Shown: piece by piece, positions 16,376 to 60,623 of the stretch | Layout: each line of letters starts with the position of its first letter | Position numbering within the stretch: the first letter of the stretch is position 1 | NCBI GenBank assembly: GCA_963543155.1 | Contig: CAUTZH010000003.1 | Coordinates: 13,628-77,627, forward strand | Direction: 5' to 3' | From: an uncultured Acholeplasmataceae bacterium | GTDB lineage: Bacteria; Bacillota_I; Bacilli_A; Acholeplasmatales; Acholeplasmataceae | Length of the DNA stretch: 64,000 bases | The notes under the pieces: model-generated | Database searches by the model: none | Told to the model about the DNA's origin: nothing | The model's input: only the letters and a program-made list of their open reading frames with translations | Position numbers and translations under genes: made by a program

Positions 16376-16393
16376 AACTACCTCCATAAATTT

Positions 16394-24319: not shown

Positions 24320-27226
24320 ATGTTAAACAAAGAAGATCTGATAAAAACATTTCAAAATATTTTTAAGTCAACCCTTGACTTTAAAAAGTACGAAAGTGTT
24401 TTTGACAAAATTATTAAAGAACTTGCAATTTCAACCAAAGAAATTCACAGTCTTGAAGAGAAAATCAATAGCCAAATTCAGGCTAATTTTTTGTTTATAG
24501 ACAAAAAAATTCATGAATATAAACTAAAGACTAAAGATATTTTTAAAGAAGTTTCAGAAAAACAAGCAGAGTTTAGTCAAAAACTTTTAGAAAAAGAAAC
24601 TGAAATAGAAAAGTTTGTAGACAGCGCTAACTTTAGATTGGTAAGCAAGAAAAATATTTTAAGAGAAGAAAATAAAAAAACTAATTTAGAGTTTGACGAA
24701 CAAATCATTTCTTTTACCGACAAAAAACTAAAAGATGAAAATATTATTTTAAAGTCTGTAAAAGACCAGACAAAACTGGCTGACCAAAATTTAAAATTGC
24801 GTCTAAACTTTATCAACACTAACTTTGAAACAAAGTCTAAAAACCTACAAGCCACATATCCAGAAACTAGTGAAAAAACTAATTTTGAACCAATTAGCGA
24901 GCAACCAGATGACACAATTTGGTTTAAAACCTTAGTTAATTTTTATAACGCCAAGGTTAAAAAAATTAACCAAGAAAAAGAGCTAGGCATTAAAACTATT
25001 GACACTTTTTTTAACGAAAAAATCGTCAGACAACAAAAAATAATTGAAACCATTGAAAACAATTATGCAAATATTTTAAAAGAGACTGAACTTGAGTATC
25101 AGGGTAAACTTACAAAACCTGCGGCTGAGTTAGATAATTTAGCCGAACTTAAAAGAACAGAATTAAAAAGTTTTGAAAAAGTTTACTTTGAAGACCTTAA
25201 CTCAGTATATATTAATGAGTATCCAGAAAGTATACAAAATCAGAAAGTCGCTAAAATAAAGGACAACTACAACAAACAAATTGCACAATACTTAAAAAAC
25301 TTTAGTCAAAAAGTGGCGGTAGTTAACGAAAAAATTACTAAAATTAAAGAACAAGCTGTAGAAAATAAAATAAAAATTGAACAAAAACGCGGCGCTAGTG
25401 TTTCAAAAAATAAAATTGCCATTCAAAAACTAGTTGAAACTAAGCGCAAATATCTTGACGAAATTAAGTCTTACTTTCAAAAAACTCTAGATACCTTTGA
25501 CAAGTATTTATTTATTTCTCGTGAGTTTTTTAACTTAAATGTTTTGATAAACAAGAACAAGATGGCAGAGTCTAACTTCATTCAAAACTTAATTCAACGA
25601 AACCAAGAAACTAATTTTAACCACTTAAAAGAAATTTTAAATATTAAACAAGAAAACTTAAATCAAGAAAAAGAAAACTTAATTTTCTCTGCTTTTTCTG
25701 ATACCAACTTAATTAAACAAGAAATAAATGTAGCAAAAGAACTTAAACAAACTCACTTAAACTACTACCACTCTTCACTGCTGAATAACTTAATTTTAAA
25801 GAAAAGTGAAAACGAAAAAGCACACTTGCAAAAACTAAACGCAATTGACCTTTCTTTTAACCTGTACTTTTTAAACTCTTTTTTAAAAAAGGAAACTGAG
25901 AACGCTAAGTTGTTTTTTTCAACTAACGAAAATAGCTTTGTTAAACTAATTCAAATTATTGAAGATTTTTTTACAATTTTTAATAAAAACGACATGTCTA
26001 AAATTCTGAATTTTGACTTTGTTTTAAATTACGCAAACTCTTTAAACAAACACAACTATAATATCGCTGTGTTGCTTAAATCAGTAATAACCGAAATTGA
26101 ACAGGACTTTTTTATAAAAGAACAAATCTCTGACTTTGAGTTATTTGAGTTCAATGCCTATATTGCCGAAACTATAGCGCTTGTTTTGTCTTTTCAGTTT
26201 AAAAGAACCCTTGACATTGTCAACCTGCAGGCTGAAAAAATCTTAAATAAAGTAATTCAGGAAACTGAAAATTGGTTGCTTGAAATTAAACAAAACCAAC
26301 TTAAAGTCGTGGCAATGCTAAAAACTAACCAAAAAGAATACGAAGCAACTTTAAAGCAAATCGTGGCTACCGCTAATGTTGACGAAATTAGTTTTCAGTC
26401 AACTAAAGAGTTTTTCGAGGCCATTAAAAAAGTTCAGGCGAACGCTGAACTAAAAATTAAGACAAACACCGCTTACTTTACTGAAAACATAGTTAGCAGA
26501 CTTTCTGAACTTAAAAAAATGAAAAGCAGTGATTTTTTTGATGCTTTTTATTTCTCTGACCACTTTAAAAACTTAAGTGACCAGTATTTTAGAAAAACCA
26601 TGCACACAACCGCGGTGCAGGCCAAAGCAGTTCGCGGTTTTCAGGCTAAGTTTACAGATGAGTTTAAGAATTTAAAAAAATGGTTCCAAGAACATCGCGA
26701 TAAAATTGTAAAAAAACAACACGACTACCTTGATTTAATTGCTAATTTAAAAACCGAAGTTACCTTAGCGCTAAGTGCTGCACAAGATGAGTTTCTTGAA
26801 GAAATTAAAGCAGAGAAGCGAGATTTGACTTACTTTAAAAAACAAAAGGCTAAAAGGCTGCGCAACAAAATTACTCGTGATTTTTTACGGAAGCAAAAGG
26901 CTTTAAATCAAAAAATTAAGGTTAGTATCGCAACTCTAAAACAAGAACCTTGCGAAAAGAAACGCCTTGAGCAACTGGTTTTTTTAAACAAAGTCCAGAC
27001 ACGCATGAAAATCAGTGCACAAAAAGAGGCAATTAAAGTAAATTATTTAAAAAAATTAAAACAAAAAAATAACGCATTTAAAGCTAAATTAACAGAACTT
27101 GAGCAGCAAAAACGCGCTTATTTAAACGAAGTAAACTCAGATAACGAAACTGCATTACTTAAATATTTAAAAAAATTCAAAGAAACTAAAAAATACATAA
27201 TTAAAATGAAGGGTACCCTTTCCTAG
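24320..27226 (+). CDS. 968-aa K/E/N/Q-rich coiled-coil protein, no signal peptide (hypothetical)
   Basis: Long uninterrupted ORF with heptad-like low-complexity composition throughout. No enzymatic motif recognised. Confidence 0.7.
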   Translation: MLNKEDLIKTFQNIFKSTLDFKKYESVFDKIIKELAISTKEIHSLEEKINSQIQANFLFIDKKIHEYKLKTKDIFKEVSEKQAEFSQKLLEKETEIEKFVDSANFRLVSKKNILREENKKTNLEFDEQIISFTDKKLKDENIILKSVKDQTKLADQNLKLRLNFINTNFETKSKNLQATYPETSEKTNFEPISEQPDDTIWFKTLVNFYNAKVKKINQEKELGIKTIDTFFNEKIVRQQKIIETIENNYANILKETELEYQGKLTKPAAELDNLAELKRTELKSFEKVYFEDLNSVYINEYPESIQNQKVAKIKDNYNKQIAQYLKNFSQKVAVVNEKITKIKEQAVENKIKIEQKRGASVSKNKIAIQKLVETKRKYLDEIKSYFQKTLDTFDKYLFISREFFNLNVLINKNKMAESNFIQNLIQRNQETNFNHLKEILNIKQENLNQEKENLIFSAFSDTNLIKQEINVAKELKQTHLNYYHSSLLNNLILKKSENEKAHLQKLNAIDLSFNLYFLNSFLKKETENAKLFFSTNENSFVKLIQIIEDFFTIFNKNDMSKILNFDFVLNYANSLNKHNYNIAVLLKSVITEIEQDFFIKEQISDFELFEFNAYIAETIALVLSFQFKRTLDIVNLQAEKILNKVIQETENWLLEIKQNQLKVVAMLKTNQKEYEATLKQIVATANVDEISFQSTKEFFEAIKKVQANAELKIKTNTAYFTENIVSRLSELKKMKSSDFFDAFYFSDHFKNLSDQYFRKTMHTTAVQAKAVRGFQAKFTDEFKNLKKWFQEHRDKIVKKQHDYLDLIANLKTEVTLALSAAQDEFLEEIKAEKRDLTYFKKQKAKRLRNKITRDFLRKQKALNQKIKVSIATLKQEPCEKKRLEQLVFLNKVQTRMKISAQKEAIKVNYLKKLKQKNNAFKAKLTELEQQKRAYLNEVNSDNETALLKYLKKFKETKKYIIKMKGTLS

Positions 27227-27707: not shown

Positions 27708-30700
27708 CTACAACGCCATATACAAAATACATAGAAGCATAATTCGAATAGCCGTCAATAATTGCCCTTGCTGTACCATAAGGATATTCTTTGTTTTCTG
27801 AAGCAACCCACCAATTTTTTTCAAATACTGTTCTAACCATGGATAATCAGTTATATTATCTCCAAATTTAGACAAATCGACTCCTCTATACTTACTAACC
27901 TCTTCTGAGTATTGCCTATTAACTGCTCTGGCATAATCAGTTGCTTCTCTTTTAAGTTTTTTGTATAAACTAGAATCATATGTAGGTTTGACACTAAATT
28001 CACCTTCGTCATATGTAGGCATAAAAGTGTCAACATTTAAAATTTTGCCAATTTCTTTAACCATTGACTTAAAGATAGAATTTTTAACATGATTGTTGCC
28101 AGGTAAACGGGAATTGATATTAAACGGAGTAAAATCAATGATATGTCTAGTAATCCAAGTGTCTCTCTTTGGAATTTTTACAAACACAACATCTTCAAAT
28201 TTATAGTATTTGCCGTTGAATTTTTCATACATATTGTTTTCAGTATCTTTAAAGTAATAGCGTTTGAATTTAATTGTTTCTTCTTTGTTTTTTGGTGTAA
28301 ATTTAAGTTCGCGCTCATCTTCTTTAACAGGTTGAATACCGTTTGGGCTAATAATTTGAGTTTGCGGGTATTTACCTACAGTTCTAGTAAGTTCGTCTAT
28401 GTAGAGTTTTATTCGGTGGTTTTTTATGACTTTTAGATACTTAATTTCATCTTTGGTTTTTAAAACATCATCTAGTTCGATTTTGACAATCAACAGTTCT
28501 TCTGCTTTGTATTTACTATCGTCAATTTCACCGTGTTCAGCACCATGTAAAAACGTTTTATCAGCAATATGACTTGAATGACCAATAGCTCTGTATTCAA
28601 CAGTATGAGTTATACGGTTAAAATGAACAACTACTTTGTTTTGCTCTTCATCCACACTAACAACTAAACGTCTTCTGCTAAATATAGGTGATTTATATGT
28701 CGTCTCATCTGGGTTTTTGTATGTGGCATAGTGAGTTTGACCAATTTTTCCATATATAATTTCTGTTTTTTCATCATACTCACCGTCTACTTTTTGAGTT
28801 CTGATGGTGTATGTAATTTTTCTGTCTTGCACATCAGTCTGCGCGAATATTTGCAGATTACTATCACCTGCGATAAACTCACTTTGAGTAGTTCCAGTTT
28901 CAGATAAACTCCAACCAACAAATTTATATAGGTCTTTTAATTCATACTCTGGTAATACGATTCTTCTAGTTTTTTTAACTTTAATAGTTTCTGCTGTTTT
29001 AAAGTTTTTAATACCTTCAGTTTTCTTAAATTCAACGCTAATTTCTCTTAACTTATAGTATTGGCGAACTTCAGTTGTGTTGTCACCTGCTGAAAGTTGT
29101 GCATACAGCACATTATCAGGACGTGTTGTGTCTTTTTCATATAAGTTAGAGTCAAGAGCATAGTAATCACGGTAAGTTGCGCCGTCTTCTACTTTTTGAT
29201 TTGAAACAATTTCTGGAACTTCATCATATTTACCATCTAAAGAGCTGTATTTTCCTTGTTTTTCTAGTTTATGGACAATTTTATAGCGAACTGTTTCAAT
29301 TGTTTCTTTAAAGTATGCAACTAAAGTGAGATTATTAGTTACCTTGCTTAAAAAGTCGTAAGCGTTTTGTTCTGAGTAGGTTCCATTCATTGAAACTTCG
29401 GTTTGCCAGTGAATAAACTGATAAGTTCTGCCGTGTCTTGAAATAGTTGGGACTTGAGGTTGCTCAACCTTTCCTTCATACCTAACTTTTTGGGTTTGTG
29501 GAACTGGTGAAACAGTACCATCAAATTGGTTTTTGTAGTTAACTACAAAGTTAACATCAAACTCTCGGCGCTGATAAATTATTTCAAAAACAGTAGTTCC
29601 GTCTGCTTTTATAATTTCGCTTTGAGGCGGGATTTGTGCAATAAACCCGTTTTTGTTGTAACTACTGTATTCATGAGAGTTGTTTAGTTGGACTACTGAA
29701 TTAGTTTTAGCGGTCTCAACAGTTGTCTTTATATCATCTGGAATGTTGTCTTTTTCAATTCCTTTAAAGACGTGTCGAATTGTATAAGTAGTTTCAGCTG
29801 GCTCAAATACAGCCCAAACTTCTTTAGTGCCACGCTCAAAGTAAATGGTTTCAGCAGGGTTGCCTTCTGCTTTTGCCCAACCTACAAACTTCCAACCTTT
29901 TTTTACACTTTGTTGTGGATTAAAGTCAAACTTTGTTCCAACTTTACCATTTTGTGGTCTCCATGCACTTGCGTCTGCCTTATCTGTATCGCCAGCAGAT
30001 AATTTAGGAATTATTGTAGCTTGTGCGTCTTTTTCTGTGAACACTGGTTTGATTTTAATGTTTTGATTGTAAGCTAAGTTTTCATTAAAGTCTTGACCAG
30101 TTGTAGTTTCAACTAGTCTATCAAAAACATAATCGCTTGTAGCAGTTTGTTGCTTTTGGACTAACTTCATTTTGGCAATCAAATCACTTGGCACAGTTTG
30201 CGAATATTTTAAGGTAAGTATTTGTTTAAGTTCTGGCGAAACAGACGCTGGAACTAAATCAGTTCTGTCAAACTCAACTGTGTAAGTTTTTGCTTTAAAG
30301 TAAACTGTTATATAGTGTTTTTCTAAAGAAGTAGTTATTCTGACTTCTGTTGTAGAATTTGCTATGTCAAAGTTAGTTTCATGATAAGGACGAGGGTTAT
30401 TAGCAAGATATTGATTCAAGATATCTTTGACATCTTGATCTGAAAACTTCGCAGTATCACCAATTTCTCTTTGTTTTGCAAGCTGTCTTTCAACAACTGT
30501 GTCTGTTTGCTCATTTATCTTTTCCCAAATCATTTTAAGATAAACTGGACGGGTAGCAGTTGCTTCGGTCCAAGTTGCTTTAAGGTTTAGGTTTTTAGTA
30601 ACTTTTAAGTTTTTAGAAAAATCTACAATTTCTCCAGTTTCTATATTTTGCCAGCCTGCAAAAGTGTAAGTTTTAATTTGAGTTGGATCTGTTTTTTTAG

Positions 30701-32999
30701 GATGTTCAATATCTCTTAAATTTTCTTCAAATTTATAAGATTCAGCGCTTTTGCTTTCTCCGTTTAAAGTACCACCGTTGTAGTCATACTCAACCGAGTA
30801 AACTTTTCTTTCATATGTTAAAGTAAAAATAGTCTGGCCATTTGCGTTAATTGTTTTAGTTTCGTTTACTGGCTGAACTTCAAAACCTTCTCTTGTGCGG
30901 GCATCTGCTTCAGTTACTGTAACTTGTGAGCCAACTTGTGCTTGTTTAACTTCGGTTTCAACGATATCTTGAATTGAACCAAAACCCTTGTAGACATGTT
31001 TGATAGTGTAGTTTACCCTGTCAACTTTTTCTTCAAAATAAGCAACTAAAGTTGTGTTTTTAGTAATTTTGGTGTTAGCAAAATCAAACTCATTAACCTC
31101 TTTATAAACATTGCCCATCTCGTCTTTAAGTTGCCAATGTTTAAAGGTATAGGTATATCCTGGTTTAGTAATAGTAGGGTTTGTTGGTCTAGTTAATTTA
31201 CCTTCATACACAACAGTTTGGCTAGGTTCACTAGAAGTAGAGACTCCTTTAAAATGATTCCCGCTATAGTTAACTTCAAAGTCAACTTTGTAGCGGTTTC
31301 TTTTGTATTTAAGTTCAAATACCGTAGTTCCATCTTTTTTAATTTTCTTTTTTAGCACACTAGAATTGTCTAAAGCAAAGCCGTAAGGTGCATTGGTTTG
31401 AGTTGGCGACAACTCAACTTCTTGCCCTGGAGTTTGACCTTCAACAATCTCTTCATTTGTTTTGTCTTCAACAAAGTTACCAGCTTGGTCTACAGATTCA
31501 AAATATTTTTTAATTATGTATTTAGTTGTTGGTAAAACTCTTTTTCGCATAACAGCTTCAAGAGTAATGTCTTCGGTAATTGGAGTATTGAAGTCATATC
31601 TAGTGCGAACACCAGTTACTGGATCTACTAAATTCCAGTAATCCAGTTCAAGTAAATCACCATTGGCATCAAGCGCTGTCACAATTGATGGAGTTAAGTA
31701 ATTAGTTTCTAATTTTTGGCCGTGTGCTCGCTTTGTCGGAAGCAACTGATTGGCGTCATGCGGAGTAATAAAGTTTACTGTGTGATATTTAATTGGTTTT
31801 TCTGGTTTAGGTTGATTTTGCTTAATTGATTTTAAGTAAAGTATGGTGTGAGTGTTTGCAAGTTCCTTAGTAAAGTCTACTTTTTCAGTTAACGCGCTGT
31901 CCTTATACCAACCAGCGTAGGCATACCCTTCTTTTTGATAAACGTGTTCCTTTAGCGGACTTCCTTTTTTAACAATATCAAAAAATACTCTTTCAACTCC
32001 ATCAAAGTAAGAAACCGCAACTAGACCTTGTTTGTCTAGCTCTGGTCCTATCTTGTTGGTGACTGTAGTGATGTCATATCTAGCAATTAGTATAAGTTCA
32101 TATTTTACCCATTTTGGAATTTCAAACTCTTGGCCTGGATTTAAATCTACACGGTTACCAGCTGGGTCAATGTAGTACCAACCAAGGAACTTAGAAATAT
32201 AGAAAGGAGGAGTATTAAACTGAATTTCGTGTCCTTGTTTTTCAGGGTCTAGAGTTTTTGCTTTACCAACAGTTTTGTCAACAAGGTCATATACTTGAGT
32301 TTTTTGTGTTTGGTTTTTAAAAATACCTGGTAAAACAAAATCGTAAACTAAAGAAATATGTGTATTGTTGTTAACGATAAATGCTCGACCTTTTGCGTTT
32401 TCTTTGGTGAAAACCTCTTCTTTACTTACAGATTGTCCGCTAGCGATACCATCTTTACCAAACGCCACAAAACCTTTCATTTTATAGAGTTCTTCATATA
32501 TATGTTTGTATTCAGTTTGTAATTTAGAGTAAGGAAGAATTATCGGTTTGCGTGGAACTGTGCCGTCTTGTGATTCTGGGAATAATACACGAAGAAAGTT
32601 AGAGTAATCTACGATAACATCGTGTTCTCTTTTAATTCCAAACCAGTTTTTAGTGTAAATTGTAAAAACTTCAGAATCGTATTCGCGGTCTGTAAAATCT
32701 AGGGCTAAGTATTTTTTGGGTTTGGCTTTGATATCGGTAATTTTGCCCATTCTGCTAGTTGTAAACCAGTCTTGCTTAACAGAAATAAAAGTGGATTTAG
32801 TTACATCAACAGTTTCAGGCACCACAAAACGCAGTTTATTTTTACCTGCTTTAACGCCATCGTGTTGAGAAAAACCACTGGCTTTAGAAAAATAAACGTC
32901 AGGATGAATAAATAAAAAAATCAAAAATAGTGTTGTTAAAGTTAAAATTAGGATAAGTAAACCAGATATTAAATACCCATTTTTTTTGTTAATCTTCAT
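27708..32999 (-). CDS. Giant signal-anchored surface protein with alternating MucBP-like and Listeria-Bacteroides-type repeat modules
   Basis: ORF 27708-33041. Start preferred at ATG 32999 ('MKINKKNGYLISGLLILIL'), 6 nt after a GGAGG. Recurrent modules of two kinds: 'Y.V.F....G.......Y.G.....P..P...GYTF.GW' and 'YTI+H.......'. The C-terminal reading frame is doubtful (see findings). Confidence 0.8.
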   Translation of the reverse strand: MKINKKNGYLISGLLILILTLTTLFLIFLFIHPDVYFSKASGFSQHDGVKAGKNKLRFVVPETVDVTKSTFISVKQDWFTTSRMGKITDIKAKPKKYLALDFTDREYDSEVFTIYTKNWFGIKREHDVIVDYSNFLRVLFPESQDGTVPRKPIILPYSKLQTEYKHIYEELYKMKGFVAFGKDGIASGQSVSKEEVFTKENAKGRAFIVNNNTHISLVYDFVLPGIFKNQTQKTQVYDLVDKTVGKAKTLDPEKQGHEIQFNTPPFYISKFLGWYYIDPAGNRVDLNPGQEFEIPKWVKYELILIARYDITTVTNKIGPELDKQGLVAVSYFDGVERVFFDIVKKGSPLKEHVYQKEGYAYAGWYKDSALTEKVDFTKELANTHTILYLKSIKQNQPKPEKPIKYHTVNFITPHDANQLLPTKRAHGQKLETNYLTPSIVTALDANGDLLELDYWNLVDPVTGVRTRYDFNTPITEDITLEAVMRKRVLPTTKYIIKKYFESVDQAGNFVEDKTNEEIVEGQTPGQEVELSPTQTNAPYGFALDNSSVLKKKIKKDGTTVFELKYKRNRYKVDFEVNYSGNHFKGVSTSSEPSQTVVYEGKLTRPTNPTITKPGYTYTFKHWQLKDEMGNVYKEVNEFDFANTKITKNTTLVAYFEEKVDRVNYTIKHVYKGFGSIQDIVETEVKQAQVGSQVTVTEADARTREGFEVQPVNETKTINANGQTIFTLTYERKVYSVEYDYNGGTLNGESKSAESYKFEENLRDIEHPKKTDPTQIKTYTFAGWQNIETGEIVDFSKNLKVTKNLNLKATWTEATATRPVYLKMIWEKINEQTDTVVERQLAKQREIGDTAKFSDQDVKDILNQYLANNPRPYHETNFDIANSTTEVRITTSLEKHYITVYFKAKTYTVEFDRTDLVPASVSPELKQILTLKYSQTVPSDLIAKMKLVQKQQTATSDYVFDRLVETTTGQDFNENLAYNQNIKIKPVFTEKDAQATIIPKLSAGDTDKADASAWRPQNGKVGTKFDFNPQQSVKKGWKFVGWAKAEGNPAETIYFERGTKEVWAVFEPAETTYTIRHVFKGIEKDNIPDDIKTTVETAKTNSVVQLNNSHEYSSYNKNGFIAQIPPQSEIIKADGTTVFEIIYQRREFDVNFVVNYKNQFDGTVSPVPQTQKVRYEGKVEQPQVPTISRHGRTYQFIHWQTEVSMNGTYSEQNAYDFLSKVTNNLTLVAYFKETIETVRYKIVHKLEKQGKYSSLDGKYDEVPEIVSNQKVEDGATYRDYYALDSNLYEKDTTRPDNVLYAQLSAGDNTTEVRQYYKLREISVEFKKTEGIKNFKTAETIKVKKTRRIVLPEYELKDLYKFVGWSLSETGTTQSEFIAGDSNLQIFAQTDVQDRKITYTIRTQKVDGEYDEKTEIIYGKIGQTHYATYKNPDETTYKSPIFSRRRLVVSVDEEQNKVVVHFNRITHTVEYRAIGHSSHIADKTFLHGAEHGEIDDSKYKAEELLIVKIELDDVLKTKDEIKYLKVIKNHRIKLYIDELTRTVGKYPQTQIISPNGIQPVKEDERELKFTPKNKEETIKFKRYYFKDTENNMYEKFNGKYYKFEDVVFVKIPKRDTWITRHIIDFTPFNINSRLPGNNHVKNSIFKSMVKEIGKILNVDTFMPTYDEGEFSVKPTYDSSLYKKLKREATDYARAVNRQYSEEVSKYRGVDLSKFGDNITDYPWLEQYLKKIGGLLQKTKNILMVQQGQLLTAIRIMLLCILYMAL

Positions 33000-33219
33000 G
33001 TATATCCTCCATAAATATAGGAAAATAGAAATAAATTTCAATTTTCTAATAATATTATATTAAAATACAAGTGTGCAATAGATATACAGGTTTGATTGGT
33101 TTTAAATATTTCAATTTAAAAGCCTTATAAGCGCGTTTTAACAGTTTTTTTACTTTTTAATTCAAATAAGTCTTTTTGTTTACTTTATCAAACTAAGTAT
33201 TAAGAAGTATTTTTGAACC

Positions 33220-35775: not shown

Positions 35776-37440
35776 TTAGCGAATTACTGAAATTATCGCG
35801 TTAACTATTGGGTTTTTGCGTTTTTTGGTGTAAATAAAGTTAGCAATGTGTTGGCGAAGTTGTTTCTTTAAGTCGTTTAGTTGCAGACCACGTTCGCCTA
35901 CTTTTGCATGGAAATTTACTAAAAAGGTCTTAGCGCTTTCAGTAATTTCTGAAATAAAGTCTGCATCCCGAGAAAAGCCTTTTGAAAATATATTAAAGTC
36001 ACCGTGAACTCTTCGGTCTTGAAACGAATATCTAAAGGCCAAGATAAAAATCCCGTCTTCAGCCAAATAAGCGCGTTCTTTGACGATAATATCGTTATTT
36101 TCGTCAATTGGCACCTCATCGATTAGTTTATCTGCAGCCGGCAACTCTTTTTTAGAGACAAAACCAGTTTTTTTGTTAAAGTGTGCGATGTCTCCGTTTT
36201 CCATTATCAAAATGTTTTTTTCCTTAAACCCAAAAGTTATTAAGGTCTCTTTTAGTTTAACTTGTTGGCTATACTCACCACGCAAAGGAATAATATAACG
36301 GGGATTTAAAAGCGAAAGCATAAAAGAAATGTCGGTGCTTGAAGCCAGGTCGTGGACAATTAAATTAGGCTTGTAGTAAGTTTTGCACTCTGTTTTAAAA
36401 AGTTCATCCAAAGTTGCTGCAAACATTGTCTCAACCCCTGGAATTGGTTTCATTAAAATACAAACTGCATCTTCCTTTGAAAGCGTTTGGCGGGGATTTT
36501 TAGACTTCGCGATGCTTTGTAGTTTAATAAGCGGTGTATTTAAGTTACCAGGGATAATCATGACGACATTCTGTATCCCGTTTTCATATACGTGTTTTTG
36601 TGAAACTAAAGATTTTAAATCAAGCGACAGGTAGCCTTTTTTAATTAAAGGAAGCAGTTTCATAAAAGATTTGCGGCTAGAGAAGCAAATTTTTCTATCT
36701 AAGCGCTCAGCCCAAGTAATAATTTCTTGAATTCGCTTAATGTCGGTGTCTGCGACTGCAAAAAACAATCTGCCTTCAGTGTTTTTAAAAACAGTGGTTA
36801 AAAACGCTTGGTATTTGTCTTGAGTGTATGAAGTGGTAAACTGAGAAACACCTGAACAGTCTGGAAGTAAGGCCAAAGTGTCTTTTGCCAAAGCGGCTTC
36901 CATTAGTGCGGAGAACTCAGTTTGGTAAAGTGGATGTGGGGTTTTGTTTAAAGAAAAAGAACCTGTGTAAATGATTTTGCCAAGTTCAGTCTGAGCAATG
37001 ATACCCACGCTTTCAGGAAGCGCTGAACTTGTGAAATAAAAAGAAAAAGAACAGTCTTTAAAATTGGCTTTAGTTCCTTTTTTAATTTCTCTAAACTCAA
37101 TTTCGGAAGCATCTATATCAGGAGTATCTTCTAAAGTTTGTTTAATTTGGTGAATAGTTAGCTCAGTTGCGTAAACTGGTACCTTGATTTGTTTTAGTAA
37201 AAAAGGCAAGGCTCCAATGTTTTCGTCTTTAAAAGACGACAAAAATATACCCTCAATTTGGTCTTTGTGTGGCAGCAGAGTTGAATAGTCTGCGATAATT
37301 GAGTCAATTCCAAACTGTTGTTGAGTTGGGTATTTTAGCCCTGCGTCTAAAATAAAGATAGAACGATTGACTTGTAGGCAGAAGAAGTTTTTGCCAATTT
37401 CTCCAAATCCACCAAGCCCAAAAATTTTAATATTAGTAAT
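35776..37440 (-). CDS. RNase J-family paralog with degenerate catalytic motifs; non-ATG (ATT) start inferred
   Basis: The track ORF starts at TTG 37242, but the frame stays open up to 37449. The extra N-terminus reads '..IKIFGLGGFGEIGKNFFCLQVNRSIFILDAGLKYP', the conserved RNase J N-terminus. Only ATT codons (37443, 37440, 37434) are available as starts after the GAGG. Total length is ~554 aa, typical for RNase J. Confidence 0.7.
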   Translation of the reverse strand: MTNIKIFGLGGFGEIGKNFFCLQVNRSIFILDAGLKYPTQQQFGIDSIIADYSTLLPHKDQIEGIFLSSFKDENIGALPFLLKQIKVPVYATELTIHQIKQTLEDTPDIDASEIEFREIKKGTKANFKDCSFSFYFTSSALPESVGIIAQTELGKIIYTGSFSLNKTPHPLYQTEFSALMEAALAKDTLALLPDCSGVSQFTTSYTQDKYQAFLTTVFKNTEGRLFFAVADTDIKRIQEIITWAERLDRKICFSSRKSFMKLLPLIKKGYLSLDLKSLVSQKHVYENGIQNVVMIIPGNLNTPLIKLQSIAKSKNPRQTLSKEDAVCILMKPIPGVETMFAATLDELFKTECKTYYKPNLIVHDLASSTDISFMLSLLNPRYIIPLRGEYSQQVKLKETLITFGFKEKNILIMENGDIAHFNKKTGFVSKKELPAADKLIDEVPIDENNDIIVKERAYLAEDGIFILAFRYSFQDRRVHGDFNIFSKGFSRDADFISEITESAKTFLVNFHAKVGERGLQLNDLKKQLRQHIANFIYTKKRKNPIVNAIISVIR

Positions 37441-37645: not shown

Positions 37646-37676
37646 AAAATCCAGTAGAGTCACTCTACTGGATTTT
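37646..37676 (-). terminator. Terminator closing the SMC-like operon
   Basis: aaaaatccagtagagt-c-actctactggatttt: perfect 15-bp stem, 23 nt after the stop of the 1109-aa gene. Confidence 0.8.
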
Positions 37677-37698
37677 AAGATTAATTCAACAAAAAAAC

Positions 37699-40600
37699 TT
37701 AGTTAAGACTTGGGTTTTCTGTGCTTTCTTCTGCGCTTTGCTCAGCCTCAGGAGTTTCTGCAATTGTTTTAATTAGTGGTTCTTTTTGAAACTCTTTGAC
37801 AAAAGAAAGTTCTTTGTGTTTAACGACTGTCAGCGAAGTTGTAACGTATTGAATGATGTTAGCCACACGTTGTGGAGGAACGGCGATAAACAACTGAATA
37901 GCTAGTGAGTTATAGAAAGTCATCATCGCGCTGATTCTAGATTCATCCATATTGTTAAAAGCCTCGTCAAAAAGAACTAGACAGCCAGATCCTGCACCGC
38001 GGTTTCTTGAAAGCAATTGTTGGAAGGAAGCCGCAATTACGATATAGAAAGGAACTTGGGTCTCTCCACCTGATTTTTCGCGAGAAACTTTTGAAAAAAG
38101 CGAAACTACGTTGTCCTCAGAAGTAATTTCAATGTCGTATTTCATGTAGTTGCGGTAGTCAAGTAATCTTGCCGCAGTTTTTTCCATCGCAGGGTCAGTT
38201 GACGAAATTTGTCTAAATAAGTCATCTAAAATTGTAGTTTGAGTTTTGTTTAAGTTGTCTTGAAAAAGCGTGTTGTTTAACTCGTGGTTGCGAGTAAGTA
38301 GATTGTAGTATCGCTCAAAGTCTGGGTCTTCAGCGGCCTTGTAAATTAGTTTATAGGTATCTTTACCAAAGCGTTTGCCTTGAAGTGCAACATTCAGGTC
38401 ATCAATTTGCTGTTTAGCCTGCTCAATTGAAGAGGCAAGTTTATTTACAAACTCTTCTTTAAAAGTAGTTTCCGCTGAGTCTCTCAGTTCTTTGGCTTTT
38501 TGCTCGTAGACTATTAAGTTATGGTTCTTAATTTCGTTTTGTTCAGCCTCAAAAGCAGTTAAGTTCTCAATTAGCGGTTCTTTTGAAAAACTGTATCTTA
38601 AGCAGTAGTCAGACATTAGTTTTAAAACCATGACGCTTTGTCTTGAAACTGAGTTTGCGAGTTTAGTTTGACTGGTTTCAAGAACTTCAATTATCTTAGT
38701 CGGATCTTCGTGTCGTTTAAGCAGTGCACTGTATTTAGTGTTGGCAGCACTAAGCAGTTCTGGGTTGTTAATCTGAAGTTCTTCCAGTTCTTGTTTATAA
38801 ACCGCTTGAGTTTCTTCAGTTTGGTTGCGGCGAACTTCAACGTCTTGCAGAACTTGCTCAATTCTACCACGGCGAGTAATTAACTCCTCGTGCTGAGTAA
38901 GAATTTGGCTGCGTTCGCTTTCTGCTTTGTCAATTTGGGCCTCAATTTCTTTAATGTCGGTGCCTTTTGCTAGATTTTCTTTTTGAGCCTGTAATTCTTG
39001 GATTTTACCTGTAAAAATCTTGATATTGTCGTTTGCAGAAAAACGGTTTTCTTGAATAATTCGGGCAGCCGCTAGGCGTTCAGCAAGTTGGCGAGTATAA
39101 GTTGTTTCACCAATTTCTTTAGAAATTGTGGCAAGATTTTGAGTTTTTTGCTCAATTTCTCTTAAAATAATTTCTTTTTGTTTAGTGTTACCGGTGATAC
39201 CGATCTGTTTTCTTGCCCAAGATTGTGGGTTTAGTTGAGAGGCGGTGTAGTTTGAGTAAGTCATTCCAAGTGGCTCAACAGAGCGGCTGAAGTTCTTAAG
39301 TTCTTTTGGTGTAGCCACGCAAATTACATTGTTGTAAAGCATGTTAATGTAAGCGCGAGCATAGGTGTGGCTGGTATCAATCTTGCCAGCAAGTGAGTCG
39401 TCAGCAGTTTGGGTTTGTGGGATTTTGCCGGTGTTGACCAAACCTACTCCAAAAATATTTAAAGTAGTTCTAACTTCGTTGTAGACCTCTAGTGCGTCGT
39501 CAAAATACTCAGGGTCAACAATTATGTTGAACTTGTTTCTGCCGATATAACCTTCGGCTACATTTCGCCAAGTTTCATCGTTGACTTCAATTAAGTCACA
39601 AAGTGGACGGAAATTAAACTCACGACGGTATTTTTGGCTGAGTTTTTCATTAATTTTTTCAACTAAAGCCGTAGTTTGTGGTGGATACATCTTGATGTTT
39701 CGCTCAAGATTGTAGTGCTCTTCTTTAAGTTGAGCAATTTCTTTGCGAATTGCTTCAGACTGCTCATTTAGTTTGTAAATACGAGCATTTGCGCCTTCTA
39801 TCAGCAGTTCTTTAAACTCAGCGATAGCCTCTAGGTTTTCTTTGACTTTAGCAATGTCTTTAAAGGCAGTTTGGCTGTGCATTTTGGCGAAATTCTTTAA
39901 AATTTCGTTAGTTTTGATGCGTTTTGCCAGTTCTTGAGTGGTACCAAGTTCTTGAATTAATGAGTTTTCAAGGTCTTTAGCCTTGATTTTCTCAGCCTCA
40001 ATTTGTGTATTGGTACGCTGAATTTCGCGAGAAATTCCGTCTAGAGTTTGAGCAAGTGAGTTAGATCCACGAGCGCGATCTAAGTTCTTAATTGTCTCTT
40101 CTTTGGCCAAAATTTGGGTCTTTAGTTCAGTGATTTGGTCCAAAATTTCTGAAAGCAGAGCAGTATTTTGTTGTTTTTCTAAACTGCATTGCTTAATAAT
40201 TGCTTCTTTTGAATTAAGTTCAGTGATTTTTTTCGTAATGTCGTTGGCAGCGATTTCGTCTTTTTCTGCCTTAATTTCGGCAGAAGAGACACGGATTTTT
40301 TCAAGAGCCTCGATTTTTTCGCGGTCTTTTTTAATTTCTGCCTCTATTTTTTTAAGCTCAGCAACATTGTTTTTAAGCGAAGAAATGTTAACTTGTGTGT
40401 TGTCAAGCAGGAACTCAAAAATGAAACTTTGCAGGTCAATCGGCTTGAAAGCAAGGGCTTTGGGAAGCAGTTTACTGTATTTTAAGCCATCAATTCCAAG
40501 AAATACAGAAAGTGCTTCTTTGTATTGTTTGTTAGTGTCAAATGCTTCAAACTTAATTTGTGCGCTGTCCAGGTAGTCGCGCATTGACTTAAAGTTACGT

Positions 40601-41028
40601 GGACGCTTATCTTCAATGTACATCGCATCGTCAATTCGTGTGTTTTTAATACGGTAAAAACGCTCTTTTAGCGAAGAGCTTTGTGGTAGGTCTATGACTA
40701 CCCCAATAATTGAGTATTTTTCGTCTCTAGTGTCAAAAAACTCAAGAGCAATATGAGTAATTACGTCGCCTGGTCTGATAAACTGCTTGTTTTCACCACC
40801 TAATTTACCGCGAATATAGCCCTCAAGTGTACGTTTAGCCTCAGGGGTTGCCGCGATATTAAAGTGCGCGTTTTGACGGCCTCCAACCAAAACATACTGC
40901 ATGGCGTCTAGTAGTGTTGACTTACCAGAGCCATTTTCTCCACTTAAAAGGATGTTGTCTTTAATGTCTAGAGTGACGTTTTGAAAGGTGTGCCAGTTAA
41001 TAATTTTAATTTTAGTTAACTTCTTCAT
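37699..41028 (-). CDS. SMC-like ATPase, JetC/MksB-like
   Basis: 1109 aa. N-terminal head 'IKIINWHTFQNVTLDIKDNILLSGENGSGKSTLLDAMQYVL' (Walker A). Several hundred aa of coiled coil. C-terminal 'SGGETQVPFY' and 'GCLVLFDEAFNNMDESR' (Walker B). Confidence 0.75.
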   Translation of the reverse strand: MKKLTKIKIINWHTFQNVTLDIKDNILLSGENGSGKSTLLDAMQYVLVGGRQNAHFNIAATPEAKRTLEGYIRGKLGGENKQFIRPGDVITHIALEFFDTRDEKYSIIGVVIDLPQSSSLKERFYRIKNTRIDDAMYIEDKRPRNFKSMRDYLDSAQIKFEAFDTNKQYKEALSVFLGIDGLKYSKLLPKALAFKPIDLQSFIFEFLLDNTQVNISSLKNNVAELKKIEAEIKKDREKIEALEKIRVSSAEIKAEKDEIAANDITKKITELNSKEAIIKQCSLEKQQNTALLSEILDQITELKTQILAKEETIKNLDRARGSNSLAQTLDGISREIQRTNTQIEAEKIKAKDLENSLIQELGTTQELAKRIKTNEILKNFAKMHSQTAFKDIAKVKENLEAIAEFKELLIEGANARIYKLNEQSEAIRKEIAQLKEEHYNLERNIKMYPPQTTALVEKINEKLSQKYRREFNFRPLCDLIEVNDETWRNVAEGYIGRNKFNIIVDPEYFDDALEVYNEVRTTLNIFGVGLVNTGKIPQTQTADDSLAGKIDTSHTYARAYINMLYNNVICVATPKELKNFSRSVEPLGMTYSNYTASQLNPQSWARKQIGITGNTKQKEIILREIEQKTQNLATISKEIGETTYTRQLAERLAAARIIQENRFSANDNIKIFTGKIQELQAQKENLAKGTDIKEIEAQIDKAESERSQILTQHEELITRRGRIEQVLQDVEVRRNQTEETQAVYKQELEELQINNPELLSAANTKYSALLKRHEDPTKIIEVLETSQTKLANSVSRQSVMVLKLMSDYCLRYSFSKEPLIENLTAFEAEQNEIKNHNLIVYEQKAKELRDSAETTFKEEFVNKLASSIEQAKQQIDDLNVALQGKRFGKDTYKLIYKAAEDPDFERYYNLLTRNHELNNTLFQDNLNKTQTTILDDLFRQISSTDPAMEKTAARLLDYRNYMKYDIEITSEDNVVSLFSKVSREKSGGETQVPFYIVIAASFQQLLSRNRGAGSGCLVLFDEAFNNMDESRISAMMTFYNSLAIQLFIAVPPQRVANIIQYVTTSLTVVKHKELSFVKEFQKEPLIKTIAETPEAEQSAEESTENPSLN

Positions 41029-41635
41029 TTACATTACCTGTGTGTTCATCTAAAGCCATCGTTAAGTTCTTTAACTCTTGGATGTTAATTACATATAAAA
41101 TGCTTTTATAGATACGAATTGTTGAACTGTCTGGCAAATCAGGGTCTTTAAAGTCAATTAAGTTATACGATTTAAAGGTCTGTAGTACTGGTCTTAGTTC
41201 TTTTTTTGAAATTCTTTTATCTAAAAACCCAATTCTGGCAAGTTCATCGTGCACTTGCTTTAACTCAATTTCAATATCTTGAGAAATTGTGGCAGTTTCC
41301 AGCGCTCTTTGGAACAAAATTCGCAAAATTAAAAGAACTACAGTGTCGTTTTTCTTAAGTCTTAAGCGGTTGTAGCCAGAGGTGTTTACAATAAAAAGCG
41401 TTTCGGCTTCTCTTTTGATTTCCAAAGAAAAGTCAAGCAGCGCAAGTAGAGCACTGATTACTTCTTTGTTTTCCAAAATAAATAGATAGTCGTTTTTGTC
41501 TGATGCTTTTTGACAAGTTATGAAGTTAACTTGCAGAAGTTTATTGACAACTCTGGTAATTTCATGGCGTTCGCCTTCTTTGAGTTTTTCATATTCTTGC
41601 ATAAATTCTTTTGCTTTAGTTAGTTTTTCTGCCAT
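41012..41635 (-). CDS. Small subunit, JetB/MksE-like (DUF4194-like)
   Basis: 207 aa. Position and size match MukE/MksE/JetB. 'YNRLRLKKNDTVVLLILRILFQ' fits the family pattern as I remember it. 17-nt overlap with the ATPase gene. Confidence 0.55.
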   Translation of the reverse strand: MAEKLTKAKEFMQEYEKLKEGERHEITRVVNKLLQVNFITCQKASDKNDYLFILENKEVISALLALLDFSLEIKREAETLFIVNTSGYNRLRLKKNDTVVLLILRILFQRALETATISQDIEIELKQVHDELARIGFLDKRISKKELRPVLQTFKSYNLIDFKDPDLPDSSTIRIYKSILYVINIQELKNLTMALDEHTGNVNEEVN

Positions 41636-41638
41636 TTT

Positions 41639-43111
41639 TTACCTCTTTTTGTAGATTTTAAAGTCTTTGAAACGAATTCCGTTGATATCTACTTTTTCAT
41701 CACCTAGTTCCACTCGGAAGTGAACTTGACTGGAGTTAGAATACAGAAAAATTAAAATTAACTTAACGTATTCAACTTCGGTTGAAAGCGGCAAGGTTTT
41801 AGCCTGCATTTCAGGGCGTCCCGCTAAGTGAAATTGCACGTATTTATCGATTTCTGTCATTCCAAAATCAGTTTGTTTCAGCATTGATGCTTGAACAAGC
41901 TCGTATTTTTCAAACGGAAACTCAGCGTCTAGTTCCATCTCGGCGGCTTTGGCCTCAGTTCTCAAAACTCGTTCTTTGTAAAGAGACTCGTGGTCTAGGT
42001 TGCGCGCCTGAATTAAGTTAAAGATTTTAGTGGTGTCAATTTCTCGGTTAGGTTCGTTTAAAATTAAGTCAAATGCACGGTTAAAGATACCTTCAATGTC
42101 GTCAGAACGGTTAGTTAAATACAAGAACTTAGCGGTAGTTGCGCCAATATAGCGTTCGTTTCTAATGTCAATTTCCGAAATTAAGTTTTCAAGTGATGTG
42201 AAGTAGTCGCGAATTGCCTGGATTCTGTGCTCTAAGACTTGAAAAGCAAACTCTTTGGTAAACTCAGGTCTTTTTTTAAGTTCAACTAGTTGGTCTGCCA
42301 ACTTTTCCATAATTGGGTCTGAGGTTAAAATATCTCTTAAGTATTTAAGAATATAGACCTTATATTTAGGAATAGACTCAGTGGTTTTAAGTAAGTAGTA
42401 GGACTTGTCAAAGAAGTTATTTTTATAGTCATGTAGTAATTGATCTAGCACTTCATCAACCGAAATTTCTTCTTTGGCGTTAACTAACTTGTAGTAGTAG
42501 TTATAAATGTTGGCACCTAGAGTTTTTAGTTTATCAACTAAACGAGTTGTTCTTTCGTAACACTCGTTTATAGTTGGCAAACCTTGCTCAACTTCAAAGT
42601 TTTTAAGCAAAGTATAAATAGTGTAGATGTCGCTTGTGTATTCGGTTTCGGCAAAAATATCTTCGTCAAACACAAAGTCTTCAACATCTTTTTCAGTTTC
42701 ATCTTCTTCTTGGTTAATTTGAAATTTAAAGGAAGCAATGGCTTCTAAAATTGAAATTGAGTAAGGAAAAAAAGAAATCGCGCGTTTGTAGTCGCCAATG
42801 TCTTCTTCGCCAATCCAACCGCACTTAACTAAGTAATTTAAAGTGATGTTGGCTTTTTTTCTAGGGGTTAAATTTTCGCCTTCTTCTGTGTATTCACTTG
42901 GCAGTTCATCAACTGCAAACACAGCACTCGCTTCGTCTTCAAAATACTGAATTAGTCTGTGGACAATGTCGCTGCGCTCAAGTTGAAATGTTCCTTCAAG
43001 GTGTTTAAATTCATCGTAAATTATGAAAAGTGAGTCTAAATAAATTTGTTTATTTTTACAAGACAGGACATTAAAAAAGGCTGGATTTAAGTAATCAAAA
43101 ATTTTTTTCAT
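41639..43111 (-). CDS. Kleisin-like subunit, JetA/MksF-like
   Basis: 490 aa, acidic, first gene of the operon, 3-nt gap to the next gene. The assignment rests on size, order and composition, not on a clear motif. Confidence 0.5.
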   Translation of the reverse strand: MKKIFDYLNPAFFNVLSCKNKQIYLDSLFIIYDEFKHLEGTFQLERSDIVHRLIQYFEDEASAVFAVDELPSEYTEEGENLTPRKKANITLNYLVKCGWIGEEDIGDYKRAISFFPYSISILEAIASFKFQINQEEDETEKDVEDFVFDEDIFAETEYTSDIYTIYTLLKNFEVEQGLPTINECYERTTRLVDKLKTLGANIYNYYYKLVNAKEEISVDEVLDQLLHDYKNNFFDKSYYLLKTTESIPKYKVYILKYLRDILTSDPIMEKLADQLVELKKRPEFTKEFAFQVLEHRIQAIRDYFTSLENLISEIDIRNERYIGATTAKFLYLTNRSDDIEGIFNRAFDLILNEPNREIDTTKIFNLIQARNLDHESLYKERVLRTEAKAAEMELDAEFPFEKYELVQASMLKQTDFGMTEIDKYVQFHLAGRPEMQAKTLPLSTEVEYVKLILIFLYSNSSQVHFRVELGDEKVDINGIRFKDFKIYKKR

Positions 43112-43127
43112 TTAGTTCCTTTTTTTT

Positions 43128-43170
43128 CGTGTTTGAGTAACTAACACAAACACGCATAGGTATTTTAGCA
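43128..43170 (-). promoter_or_regulatory. Extended -10 (TGcTAAAAT) plus 5'-UTR hairpin of the SMC-like operon
   Basis: Minus strand tgctaaaat (43170-43162). 8-bp stem cgtgtttg/caaacacg (43128-43135 / 43147-43154), then AAGGAA and the ATG. Confidence 0.4.
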
Positions 43171-43452
43171 TATAACTTTTAGATATACAAAAGTAAAAAA
43201 GACATAACCAAAATATAGACAAATGGCTTAGTAAGGCTGTTTGTGTATTTTTCTAAAAATTGCTGACTTTAAGCAACTGATACACCAAAGTTTTGATTTT
43301 TTTATACAAGTGTACTGTGTTTTTTAAAGAAATTTTGCTGAGCAAAACGCCGCCAAAATAAAAAAACAGGTACTTAAAAAAATTTAAAATTATTTTTAAG
43401 TGAGTGCCTGTTTGGTTTTTATAAATTTAGGTAATTTAGTTTAGAGTTTAAA

Positions 43453-43528
43453 TGGCGGTAGCGAAAGGAATTGAACCTTCGACACCAAGTTTAGGAAACT
43501 TGTGCTCTATCCGCTGAGCTACGCTACC
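43453..43528 (-). tRNA. tRNA-Arg (anticodon CCU), CCA encoded
   Basis: Folded by hand: acceptor GGTAGCG/CGCTACC; D arm GCTC-AGCGGATA-GAGC; anticodon arm CAAGT-TTCCTAA-ACTTG; T arm GAAGG-TTCAATT-CCTTT; discriminator G; CCA. 76 nt. Confidence 0.9.
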
Positions 43529-58750: not shown

Positions 58751-59363
58751 GATTGAAGAACTGCTTAAAAATGAAAAAGTTGAATGGAAGAAATTAATTG
58801 AAGTAGCAACTATAGTCAAAGGTGTTCAATTTAATAAAAGTAATATGCAAAATGTAGGAAAATATCCAGTTATAAACGGCGGTATTTTGCCATCTGGTTA
58901 TATTGATATATTTAACTGCAACGAAAACACTATTACTGTTGCACAAGGTGGTTCTGCTGGTTTCGTTAGTTTTTTAGAAAGTAAGTTTTGGTTAGGAGCA
59001 CACGCCTATTCTGTTATTCCAACTCAAGATACTTTAAAAAAATACGGGTATCAGTATAACACATTTAACAGACTAATATTTCACGTCTTAAAAAATAAAC
59101 AATATGACTTGCAACAATCTAAAGTCGGCGTTTCAATACCTAGTATATCCAAAGATTTTCTTGGTAATATTAAAGTGCCTTTAATCGCAAAAAATATTCA
59201 AGAAAAAATTGTGAAAATACTCGACAATTTTACAAATTATGTTGCTGAATTGCAGGCTGAATTGCAGGCTAGAGTCAAACAATACGAGTATTATAGAGAA
59301 TTACTATTAAGCGAAGAATACCTAAACAAATTGGCCGCCGTGCGAGAGAGAGAGAGAGAGTAA
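58743..59363 (+). CDS. hsdS: Type I specificity subunit, N-terminal half (TRD1 + central conserved helix), terminated just after a (GA)8 tract
   Basis: Start at ATG 58743 (AAGGAG 7 nt upstream, ATGA overlap with the hsdM stop). '..[38 protein letters not shown]' is the HsdS conserved-region pattern. Ends '..AAVRERERE*'. Confidence 0.85.
59244..59267 (+). repeat. 12-bp tandem duplication (gctgaattgcag x2, encoding AELQ-AELQ) in the hsdS central conserved region
   Basis: Exact direct duplication 59244-59255 / 59256-59267, followed by a partial third 'gct'. Confidence 0.95.
59344..59360 (+). repeat. Dinucleotide repeat (GA)8G inside hsdS
   Basis: gagagagagagagagag. The upstream and downstream hsdS reading frames overlap across it. 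Confidence 0.95.
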
Positions 59364-59364
59364 G

Positions 59365-60575: not shown

Positions 60576-60623
60576 TTTAATTTAAAGTTATACGGTCATC
60601 ATTATAAAAAGGAGAGAATTTAT

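Follow-up and report, generated by a model that had tools for sequence, protein, structure and literature searches.

A jetABC operon without jetD, conserved across the Acholeplasmatales and probably encoding a nuclease-free condensin

Results

The jetABC locus

Our subject is a three-gene operon, jetABC, on the minus strand of a 64-kb stretch of DNA from an uncultured Acholeplasmataceae bacterium (contig CAUTZH010000003.1, positions 13,628 to 77,627). This whole stretch is called the window here, and positions are counted from its first letter. The genes almost certainly encode the JetA, JetB and JetC subunits of a type I Wadjet complex, while the fourth Wadjet gene, jetD, which encodes the nuclease, is missing from the locus. 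In the open reading frame (ORF) list of the window the three genes are coupled and run from 43111 to 37699, with a 3-nt gap between jetA and jetB and a 17-nt overlap between jetB and jetC. The original prediction, which was made from the DNA letters alone, had given these same ORF coordinates, gap and overlap, and all were reproduced exactly. It had also placed a tRNA-Arg gene about 340 bp away, and we measured 341 bp between tRNA-Arg(CCT) and jetA, the tRNA gene being upstream. The coordinates of all features are collected in Table 1.

The elements that were proposed to control the operon hold up to different degrees. The intrinsic terminator that closes it is well supported by its fold (free energy, dG, -18.4 kcal/mol; z -4.22; matched by none of 200 shuffles), but the stem has 14 bp and not the 15 bp first claimed. 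The hairpin in the 5' untranslated region (5'-UTR) of jetA was also recovered, with moderate support (dG -12 kcal/mol; z -2.95; matched by 3 of 200 shuffles). As for the operon having its own promoter, an extended -10 element can indeed be read upstream of jetA, and together with its -35 hexamer it is a plausible jetA promoter candidate. The consensus promoter scan does not list this site because the hexamer fits at only 3 of 6 positions, which is below the scan's -35 threshold. Between the tRNA-Arg gene and the promoter-like site there is a further hairpin, with an 11-bp stem, that scores as a terminator on the plus strand and has a T-rich run on the minus strand too. It may shield jetABC from transcripts that read through from recX/tRNA.

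Table 1. Positions of the jetABC operon, its elements and other features discussed in the text. Positions refer to the window unless a locus is named.
Feature	Position	Strand	Description
jetA	41639..43111	-	490 aa, kleisin subunit (MksF/MukF analogue); profile matches
jetB	41012..41635	-	207 aa, KITE subunit (MksE/MukE analogue), DUF4194; profile matches
jetC	37699..41028	-	1109 aa, SMC/MukB-like ABC ATPase with long coiled coil; profile matches
Promoter-like site	43162..43190	-	-35 TTGTAT (43190-43185), 17-nt spacer, extended -10 TGcTAAAAT (43170-43162); read by eye
5'-UTR hairpin	43128..43154	-	8-bp core stem CGTGTTTG/CAAACACG; precedes the ribosome-binding site of jetA (AAGGAA)
Intrinsic terminator of the operon	37646..37676	-	14-bp stem, 3-nt loop, T-run; terminator scan
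JetC Walker A, GENGSGKST	40941-40915 (residues 30-38)	-	motif search
JetC signature, SGGETQ	38073-38056 (residues 986-991)	-	motif search
JetC Walker B, LVLFDE	37980-37963 (residues 1017-1022)	-	motif search
JetC larynx Phe922	within 38277-38254	-	alignment to E. coli JetC F919
JetA acidic insert	42638-42721 (residues 131-158)	-	28 residues
JetC acidic C-terminal tail	37702-37760	-	about 20 residues
tRNA-Arg(CCT)	43453-43528	-	upstream of jetA
Hairpin between tRNA-Arg and promoter-like site	43219-43244		11-bp stem
RNase J-like gene	35776-37440	-	next gene after jetC
Cyclo-ligase/IspD/IspF fusion	3623-5251	-	542 aa
Schlafen-type protein	15053-16387	-	AlbA_2 / HATPase_c_4 / winged helix-turn-helix
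ORF with no Pfam match	24320-27226	+	968 aa
Repeat-rich protein	27708-33041	-	1777 aa
Type I restriction-modification system	57182-63644	+	hsdM, hsdS, hsdR
Phytoplasma jetB-jetC loci	~8300-10020 in each of L065, L066, L070, L072-L074, L076, L077, L079-L084		
Haloplasma contractile genes after jetABC	L092 11385-13342	same as jetABC	DUF6199 (66 aa), HD-domain (214 aa) and NERD (250 aa) proteins
Thomasclavelia cocleata defence island	L090 2069-19210		OLD-family Toprim ATPase and UvrD helicase (Gabija-like) upstream; Cas9 and Cas1 downstream

Identity of the three proteins

Each of the three proteins matches a type I Wadjet family over its full length. JetA matches Pfam PF18982, also known as DUF5716 (3e-69; 234 against a cut-off of 26.2 bits) and the PADLOC profile JetA1 (PDLC00442; 1.6e-82), with residues 2-489 aligned to profile positions 3-466 of 467, and an Acholeplasmatales JetA profile finds it at 9e-195. 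JetB matches PF13835, that is DUF4194 (1.7e-24; 86.8 bits against a cut-off of 32.7), and PADLOC JetB1 (3.7e-52); with the MksE model PF21980 it scores 21.5 bits, under the cut-off of 27. JetC matches PADLOC JetC1 (PDLC00519) at 5e-296 and 983 bits, with residues 1-1085 on profile positions 1-1090 of 1097. Its Pfam domain matches are AAA_29, AAA_23, SbcC_Walker_B and MukB_N, the last of these (PF04310) being borderline at 23.4 bits against a cut-off of 23, and the Pfam scan of the operon proteins gave no MukF match. The Walker A, SGGETQ and Walker B motifs that had been pointed out in the ATPase were all located. The early reading of the locus as a JetA/JetB/JetC-like operon therefore stands, and the suggestion that its first two proteins may be new families falls, since the 490-aa and 207-aa proteins are clearly JetA and JetB and not members of unrelated families.

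Comparison to known structures depends on the kind of search. Single-sequence phmmer runs with JetA, JetB and JetC against PDB sequences found no matches; a JetC profile of the clade reaches the MukB head and, for JetC itself, the structures 8DK2 and 8AS8. A profile of the C-terminal head, seeded with eight clade members and three plasmid JetABCD sequences, reaches the MukB structures at 6e-14 and E. coli JetC at 2e-10. Phe922 of JetC, which is invariant in the clade, aligns to Phe919 of E. coli JetC, the residue on which JetD docks. The equivalent Phe is conserved in MukB too, which has no nuclease, so its retention here is neutral between the readings considered below.

The window species differs in some details from its relatives. 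Its JetA has a 28-residue acidic insert, QINQEEDETEKDVEDFVFDEDIFAETEY, and is 490 aa long compared with 457-462 aa in A. laidlawii, H. axanthum and A. palmae. Its JetC ends in an acidic tail, and ten other aligned Acholeplasmatales JetC sequences stop before the position of this tail.

The ATPase could also be thought of as a DNA-repair protein of the RecN/SbcC/Rad50 kind that works with the neighbouring recX/recA pathway, given that recX lies just upstream in many genera and that JetC has generic SbcC_Walker_B and AAA_23 matches. This we regard as very improbable, and the family assignments already contradict it. Compared with the 983 bits for JetC1 over the full length, the equivalog models for recF (29.9 bits, cut-off 172), Rad50 (30 bits, cut-off 700) and Smc (TIGR02168; 33 bits, cut-off 567, with no SMC_hinge match) give scores far under their cut-offs, as does the DndD equivalog, and JetC does not group with RecN, SbcC or RecF, a possibility which the original prediction had raised. 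Additionally, the operon encodes kleisin and KITE partners, unlike RecN or SbcC. The tRNA gene and others lie between recX and the operon, and recX is absent from the loci of A. palmae, A. laidlawii and the phytoplasmas.

Absence of the JetD nuclease

The distance from jetC to the next gene, an RNase J-like gene that starts at about 37440, is only about 260 bp and is occupied by the terminator and a promoter region. This leaves no room for jetD after jetC, so none was overlooked at 37.45-37.70 kb, where a missed gene had been considered. We searched more widely with JetD profiles built from five bona fide JetABCD loci, of which three are plasmid-borne (Cohnella, Rossellomorea and Butyrivibrio) and two chromosomal (Thomasclavelia cocleata and a metagenome-assembled genome, MAG, from the gut). 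With all speed filters off, these were run on the six-frame translation of the window, 86 loci of relatives and Haloplasma contractile (L092), with flanks of up to 10 kb. True JetDs score between 1e-158 and 1e-209. Outside the seeds, the best E-value in the window and the relatives' loci was 0.09 with a three-seed profile, and the five-seed profile gave only values above 1 there. No Toprim nuclease is among the Pfam annotations of 43 further ORFs of the window. We are thus nearly certain, judging from these profile matches and blanks taken jointly, that the operon encodes full-length type I JetA, JetB and JetC and that JetD is absent from its surroundings, which agrees with the earlier statement that no nuclease partner is at the locus.

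Whether JetD is absent from the lineage is a broader question. The top 120 JetD homologues have named sources that are all Erysipelotrichales or other Bacillota, and none of the named ones is Acholeplasma or Mycoplasmatota; as most of the entries are nameless, this is suggestive only of an absence from the lineage. JetC searches at the same identity level return many Acholeplasmataceae.

Two genes that follow jetC were tried as substitutes for JetD and rejected. The gene of about 440 aa often found after jetC in relatives is the aminopeptidase PepC, with a GRCW active site and a Peptidase_C1_2 match. The RNase J-like gene of the window stands behind the terminator, is found after jetC in the window species alone and has a degenerate HxHxDH motif. 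This gene has beta-CASP and RNase J C-terminal domains, and SSFKDEN replaces HxHxDH. The conserved N-terminus starts from an ATT codon with a GAGG ribosome-binding site, no ATG, GTG or TTG being available, and the gene is under purifying selection, with a ratio of nonsynonymous to synonymous substitution rates (dN/dS) of about 0.03-0.045. Going by the replaced motif, its product is probably a catalytically dead RNase J paralogue.

A different way to keep the operon in defence is to assume an effector that is not linked to it. The complex would then act against plasmids or other mobile genetic elements, either with a JetD encoded elsewhere or with a nuclease not homologous to JetD that docks at the larynx of JetC. 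The full-length type I subunits and the retained docking Phe could be taken in favor of this, as could the type I restriction-modification system and the Schlafen/AlbA_2 protein found in the same window and the HD and NERD genes after jetC in Haloplasma contractile. However, the Phe is kept in the nuclease-free MukB as well, about 80 loci have no JetD within up to 10 kb, the named JetD homologues are never from Acholeplasma or Mycoplasmatota, and the gene downstream of jetC is not conserved. The neighborhood of the operon and the plasmids of its hosts also speak against it, as described below.

Conservation and inheritance

A scan of one genome per species gave 479 relatives, and the groups given here are those of the best 80 loci. 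All of these 80 belong to Acholeplasmatales or Haloplasmataceae. They include 16 conspecific 'uncultured Acholeplasmataceae' MAGs (92-99% identity), cultured acholeplasmas with the complete A. laidlawii 8195 genome among them, complete MAG chromosomes, one Haloplasmataceae MAG and 14 phytoplasma loci (35-39% identity). Complete phytoplasma genomes with the locus are those of Ca. P. oryzae (511 kb), P. fraxini (599 kb) and P. rubi (762 kb), and jetB-jetC is kept in all 14 phytoplasma loci. In these, a gene for a Cof-type HAD hydrolase is found directly upstream of jetB. In the protein database the best JetC match is a 98%-identical conspecific sequence, followed by Haploplasma, Mariniplasma and Alteracholeplasma (Acholeplasmataceae) at 42-46% identity. 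An exact-sequence look-up of the window's JetC had no match, and the 98%-identical protein led to conspecific contigs.

The gene order around the operon is conserved as well. The acholeplasma-type loci that cover the region upstream of jetC have the order jetA-jetB-jetC, and the order secA-prfB-yitT-recX…jetABC recurs across genera, often as in the window. What follows jetC varies: many MAGs have PepC there, A. laidlawii and A. palmae have PtsI, H. axanthum has a DEAD helicase and the window species has the RNase J-like gene. In the gene maps it is never JetD. A tRNA-Arg(CCG)-tRNA-Ser(GGA) pair recurs 1.4-8 kb downstream of jetC in many Acholeplasmatales (L003, L005, L025, L026, L059, L061 and L063), which is further evidence of conserved local synteny. 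A '547-aa gene' that seemed to be shared upstream of the operon by A. laidlawii and phytoplasmas was rejected, as the two genes are not homologous to each other. By Pfam, the flanks in the window are housekeeping genes (tsaBDE, cdaA, thiI, queA, obg, rpmA, rplU, recX, prfB, secA, fba, ldh and hpf).

The proximity of the tRNA gene had been taken to fit an acquired module. We rejected an island origin: tRNA-Arg(CCT) is a neighbor in the window species only, no att-like, tRNA-derived direct repeats were found flanking the operon, the base composition is unremarkable, and the locus is syntenic and vertical across the Acholeplasmatales among housekeeping flanks.

The JetC tree follows taxonomy, with the phytoplasmas as one clade that has the expected subgroups, and 200 of 200 bootstraps recover a monophyletic group of Acholeplasmatales plus phytoplasmas; the trees are neighbor-joining trees of modest samples. 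The pairwise identities of JetC and PrfB are correlated (Spearman 0.89, over 45 non-independent pairs), and with a mean identity of 58%, compared with 63% for PrfB, JetC is nearly as slow-evolving. Among the conspecific MAGs, dN/dS is 0.02-0.03 for jetA, 0.02-0.06 for jetB and 0.025-0.06 for jetC, while it is 0.05-0.12 for prfB, obg and recX; the values for jetABC are as low as or lower than those for these three genes and for the RNase J-like gene. These low values show strong purifying selection on the three genes. We conclude with high confidence that jetABC is a vertically inherited core operon of the Acholeplasmatales.

The same data bear on whether the operon is a decaying remnant that lost its function together with JetD. 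JetD is missing, and the phytoplasma loci are without jetA as well, as such decay would have it. Against this, the ORFs are intact in about 80 genomes with invariant ATPase motifs, dN/dS is 0.02-0.06, and the locus is kept in genomes down to 0.5 Mb, which shed non-essential genes. The selection analysis already contradicts a remnant, and we give the idea hardly any credence.

Nearest JetD-bearing systems

A search seeded with the Haloplasmataceae JetC finds both Acholeplasmataceae and Erysipelotrichales (e.g. Thomasclavelia) at 36-40% identity. Thomasclavelia cocleata and an abundant gut MAG have jetABCD with jetD overlapping jetC, and in T. cocleata the genes lie in a defence island (Table 1). 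The JetC of the window is 31-32% identical to these JetD-linked Erysipelotrichales JetCs and 22-25% identical to plasmid-borne ones, and on sequence identity the former are the closest nuclease-associated relatives found. Haloplasma contractile has jetABC without jetD. Three genes that follow its jetABC on the same strand encode a DUF6199, an HD-domain and a NERD protein, and these could be an alternative effector or a coincidence.

We infer that JetD was lost in or before the common ancestor of the Acholeplasmatales, and not that it was absent from the start. A single JetD-less clade that includes the Haloplasmatales has the support of 99 of 200 neighbor-joining bootstraps, so there may have been one loss or two.

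Other features of the window

Several other ORFs of the window were noted on the way. One fuses 5-formyltetrahydrofolate cyclo-ligase, IspD and IspF (YgbB) in a single protein. IspDF fusions are known, and the N-terminal cyclo-ligase is unusual. An ORF of 968 aa has no Pfam match and is conserved in the conspecific MAGs. Beside it is a repeat-rich protein of 1777 aa, with faint Flg_new matches in a homologue, which is probably surface-exposed. Finally, genes of a defence type are present as well, namely hsdM, hsdS and hsdR of the type I restriction-modification system and the gene for the Schlafen protein.

Discussion

We think it probable, from the comparative data, that the operon encodes a domesticated, nuclease-free, loop-extruding condensin, likely one that folds the cell's own chromosome. 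This reading is based on the order-wide vertical inheritance, the housekeeping context, the very low dN/dS and the retention in parasite genomes of 0.5-0.8 Mb. It is in line with what is known of Wadjet-group complexes that have no JetD, as MukBEF and the MksBEF of P. aeruginosa act on chromosomes (PMC10586767; PMC7617805). The original prediction had left two alternatives, a JetD-less condensin-type complex and a Wadjet derivative with an unlinked effector, of which the first is now the best supported and the second disfavored.

The mechanism can be outlined by homology to the JetABC complexes of E. coli and P. aeruginosa and to MukBEF. JetC would dimerise at its hinge, JetA would bridge the JetC heads and, through its N-terminal domain, join two such units into a dimer of motors, and dimers of JetB would sit on JetA. 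Binding and hydrolysis of ATP at the Walker A, Walker B and signature sites, which are intact, would then power the extrusion of DNA loops. Extrusion that stalls or runs to completion could not end in DNA cleavage, as there is no JetD to dock. The complex would instead extrude loops on the cell's own chromosome of 0.5-1.9 Mb, compacting it and individualising the sister chromosomes.

The behavior of plasmids in these organisms helps to separate this from a role in defence. In canonical systems JetABC uses ATP to extrude loops and senses small circular DNA (PMC10586767), after which JetD docks at the larynx of JetC to cut the DNA (bioRxiv 10.1101/2023.11.03.565488; PMC10586767). A. laidlawii 8195 has an intact jetABC (L057) and yet replicates pAL1 and pNZ18, small circular plasmids that could be isolated again from transformed cells and were verified by restriction digestion (bioRxiv 10.1101/2022.09.21.508766). 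This argues against plasmid restriction in that relative. Phytoplasmas often carry plasmids and circular forms of potential mobile units (PMUs) (PMC3322544), and these argue against it as well. Together with the housekeeping surroundings, this makes a Wadjet that restricts plasmids by way of an unlinked effector unlikely.

A control of small circles that needs no nuclease has to be weighed separately. Here the complex would extrude a circle completely and then silence, sequester or mis-segregate it, in the manner of Smc5/6, or else it would partition the plasmids or PMU circles of its own host. Such a role would make use of the shape and size sensing that JetABC alone performs in canonical systems (PMC10586767), the plasmids and circular PMU forms of phytoplasmas could be its substrates, and the inefficient transformation of A. 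laidlawii could be its effect. However, it has no precedent in bacteria, plasmids were stably recovered from A. laidlawii 8195, and the order-wide conservation with dN/dS as low as that of prfB and obg fits housekeeping better. We consider it quite improbable.

Some observations do not sit well with a chromosomal condensin and have to be set against it. One of these comes from the phytoplasmas, where a JetA profile (E up to 1, six-frame) found no jetA within 10 kb in any of the 14 loci. Their jetBC could be an SMC-KITE pair without a kleisin, or the kleisin gene could have been relocated or become unrecognisable. A locus without its kleisin is odd for an essential SMC-kleisin machine. The other comes from A. 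laidlawii, in which plasmid transformation is inefficient (bioRxiv 10.1101/2022.09.21.508766), and a partial anti-plasmid effect could still exist there.

A more far-reaching version of the condensin reading is that JetABC replaced Smc-ScpAB in the ancestor of the Acholeplasmatales and is now the sole, essential chromosome-folding SMC, with the phytoplasmas running on JetB-JetC and their kleisin gone or replaced by something unrecognised. We put this forward tentatively, as a possibility that is less probable than not. The fetched loci of relatives contain no further SMC-like large ATPase, and they contain no ftsY at which the rnc-smc-ftsY synteny could be inspected. Neither smc nor scpAB is mentioned in the comparative-genomics papers and supplements consulted. 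A review of phytoplasma genomes (PMC3322544) calls the partitioning repertoire 'sparse' and lists only spoVG and doubtful PMU-borne 'smc' genes, which are absent in 2 of 4 genomes, and later phytoplasma papers use 'smc' only for that PMU protein. A sparse segregation repertoire fits JetBC or JetABC as the SMC complex of these organisms, without being proof of it. We found no literature that links Acholeplasma or phytoplasmas to Wadjet, JetC or MksB, and the supplementary text of Bürmann et al. mentions neither Acholeplasma nor phytoplasmas.

In the SMC field, MukBEF and MksBEF have been proposed to derive from a plasmid-cutting Wadjet that lost its nuclease. A second case of this kind, independent and extending over an order, would make this transition from defence to housekeeping open to comparison, as the nearest relatives, the Erysipelotrichales, keep JetD. 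If JetABC really is the sole condensin, it would be an independent repeat, on the Bacillota side, of the domestication that led from Wadjet to MukBEF. JetABC or JetBC is also a candidate for the missing chromosome-organisation machinery of the phytoplasmas, which are unculturable crop pathogens. The hypothesis is within experimental reach, because A. laidlawii 8195, whose operon is intact, can be cultured and transformed and has replicative plasmids. In the meantime, annotation pipelines and defence finders should not call such loci incomplete Wadjet systems or 'hypothetical ATPases'.

Comparison with known systems

The operon is closest in makeup to the type I Wadjet systems, represented by those of E. 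coli GF4-3 (PDB 8AS8/8BFN) and P. aeruginosa PA14 (PDB 8DK2), while the nearest in sequence among those found are the systems of Thomasclavelia cocleata and the gut MAG, a member of the Bacillota. It shares with them the protein families, the gene order with overlapping genes, similar subunit sizes, intact ATPase motifs and the larynx Phe. However, in JetABCD the JetD Toprim nuclease (PF09983/PF11795) comes directly after jetC, while none is present at the window locus. Those systems are also patchy, mobile and often in defence islands, whereas the operon described here is vertical, order-wide and in a housekeeping neighborhood.

In lacking the nuclease MksG beside an SMC-like ATPase, a kleisin and a KITE protein, the operon is similar to the MksBEF of P. 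aeruginosa and the mycobacterial MksB condensin. It differs in being an independent lineage within Bacillota/Mycoplasmatota and in its conservation across a whole order, obligate parasites with minimal genomes included, and P. aeruginosa keeps Smc-ScpAB beside its MksBEF. The MukBEF of Enterobacterales likewise belongs to the Wadjet/Mks group, is free of a nuclease and is inherited vertically in its clade, where it folds the chromosome and replaces Smc-ScpAB (PMC7617805). The profile of the C-terminal head scores MukB at least as well as E. coli JetC. On the other hand, JetC has 1109 aa and MukB about 1480 aa, the MukE/MksE and MukB Pfam models match the window proteins only at or under threshold, and partnerships like those of MukBEF with MatP, topoisomerase IV and AcpP are not known for the complex of the window. 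With Smc-ScpAB it has in common the SMC-kleisin-KITE architecture and a presumed chromosomal role, but its ATPase is far from the Smc equivalog and has no hinge match, and its kleisin and KITE proteins come from other families. By its sequence the complex thus belongs to a kind that is already recognised, the nuclease-free complexes of the Wadjet group (PMC7617805, PMC10586767). Its lineage is one for which we found no description in the searchable literature, and its conservation reaches as far as the phytoplasmas.

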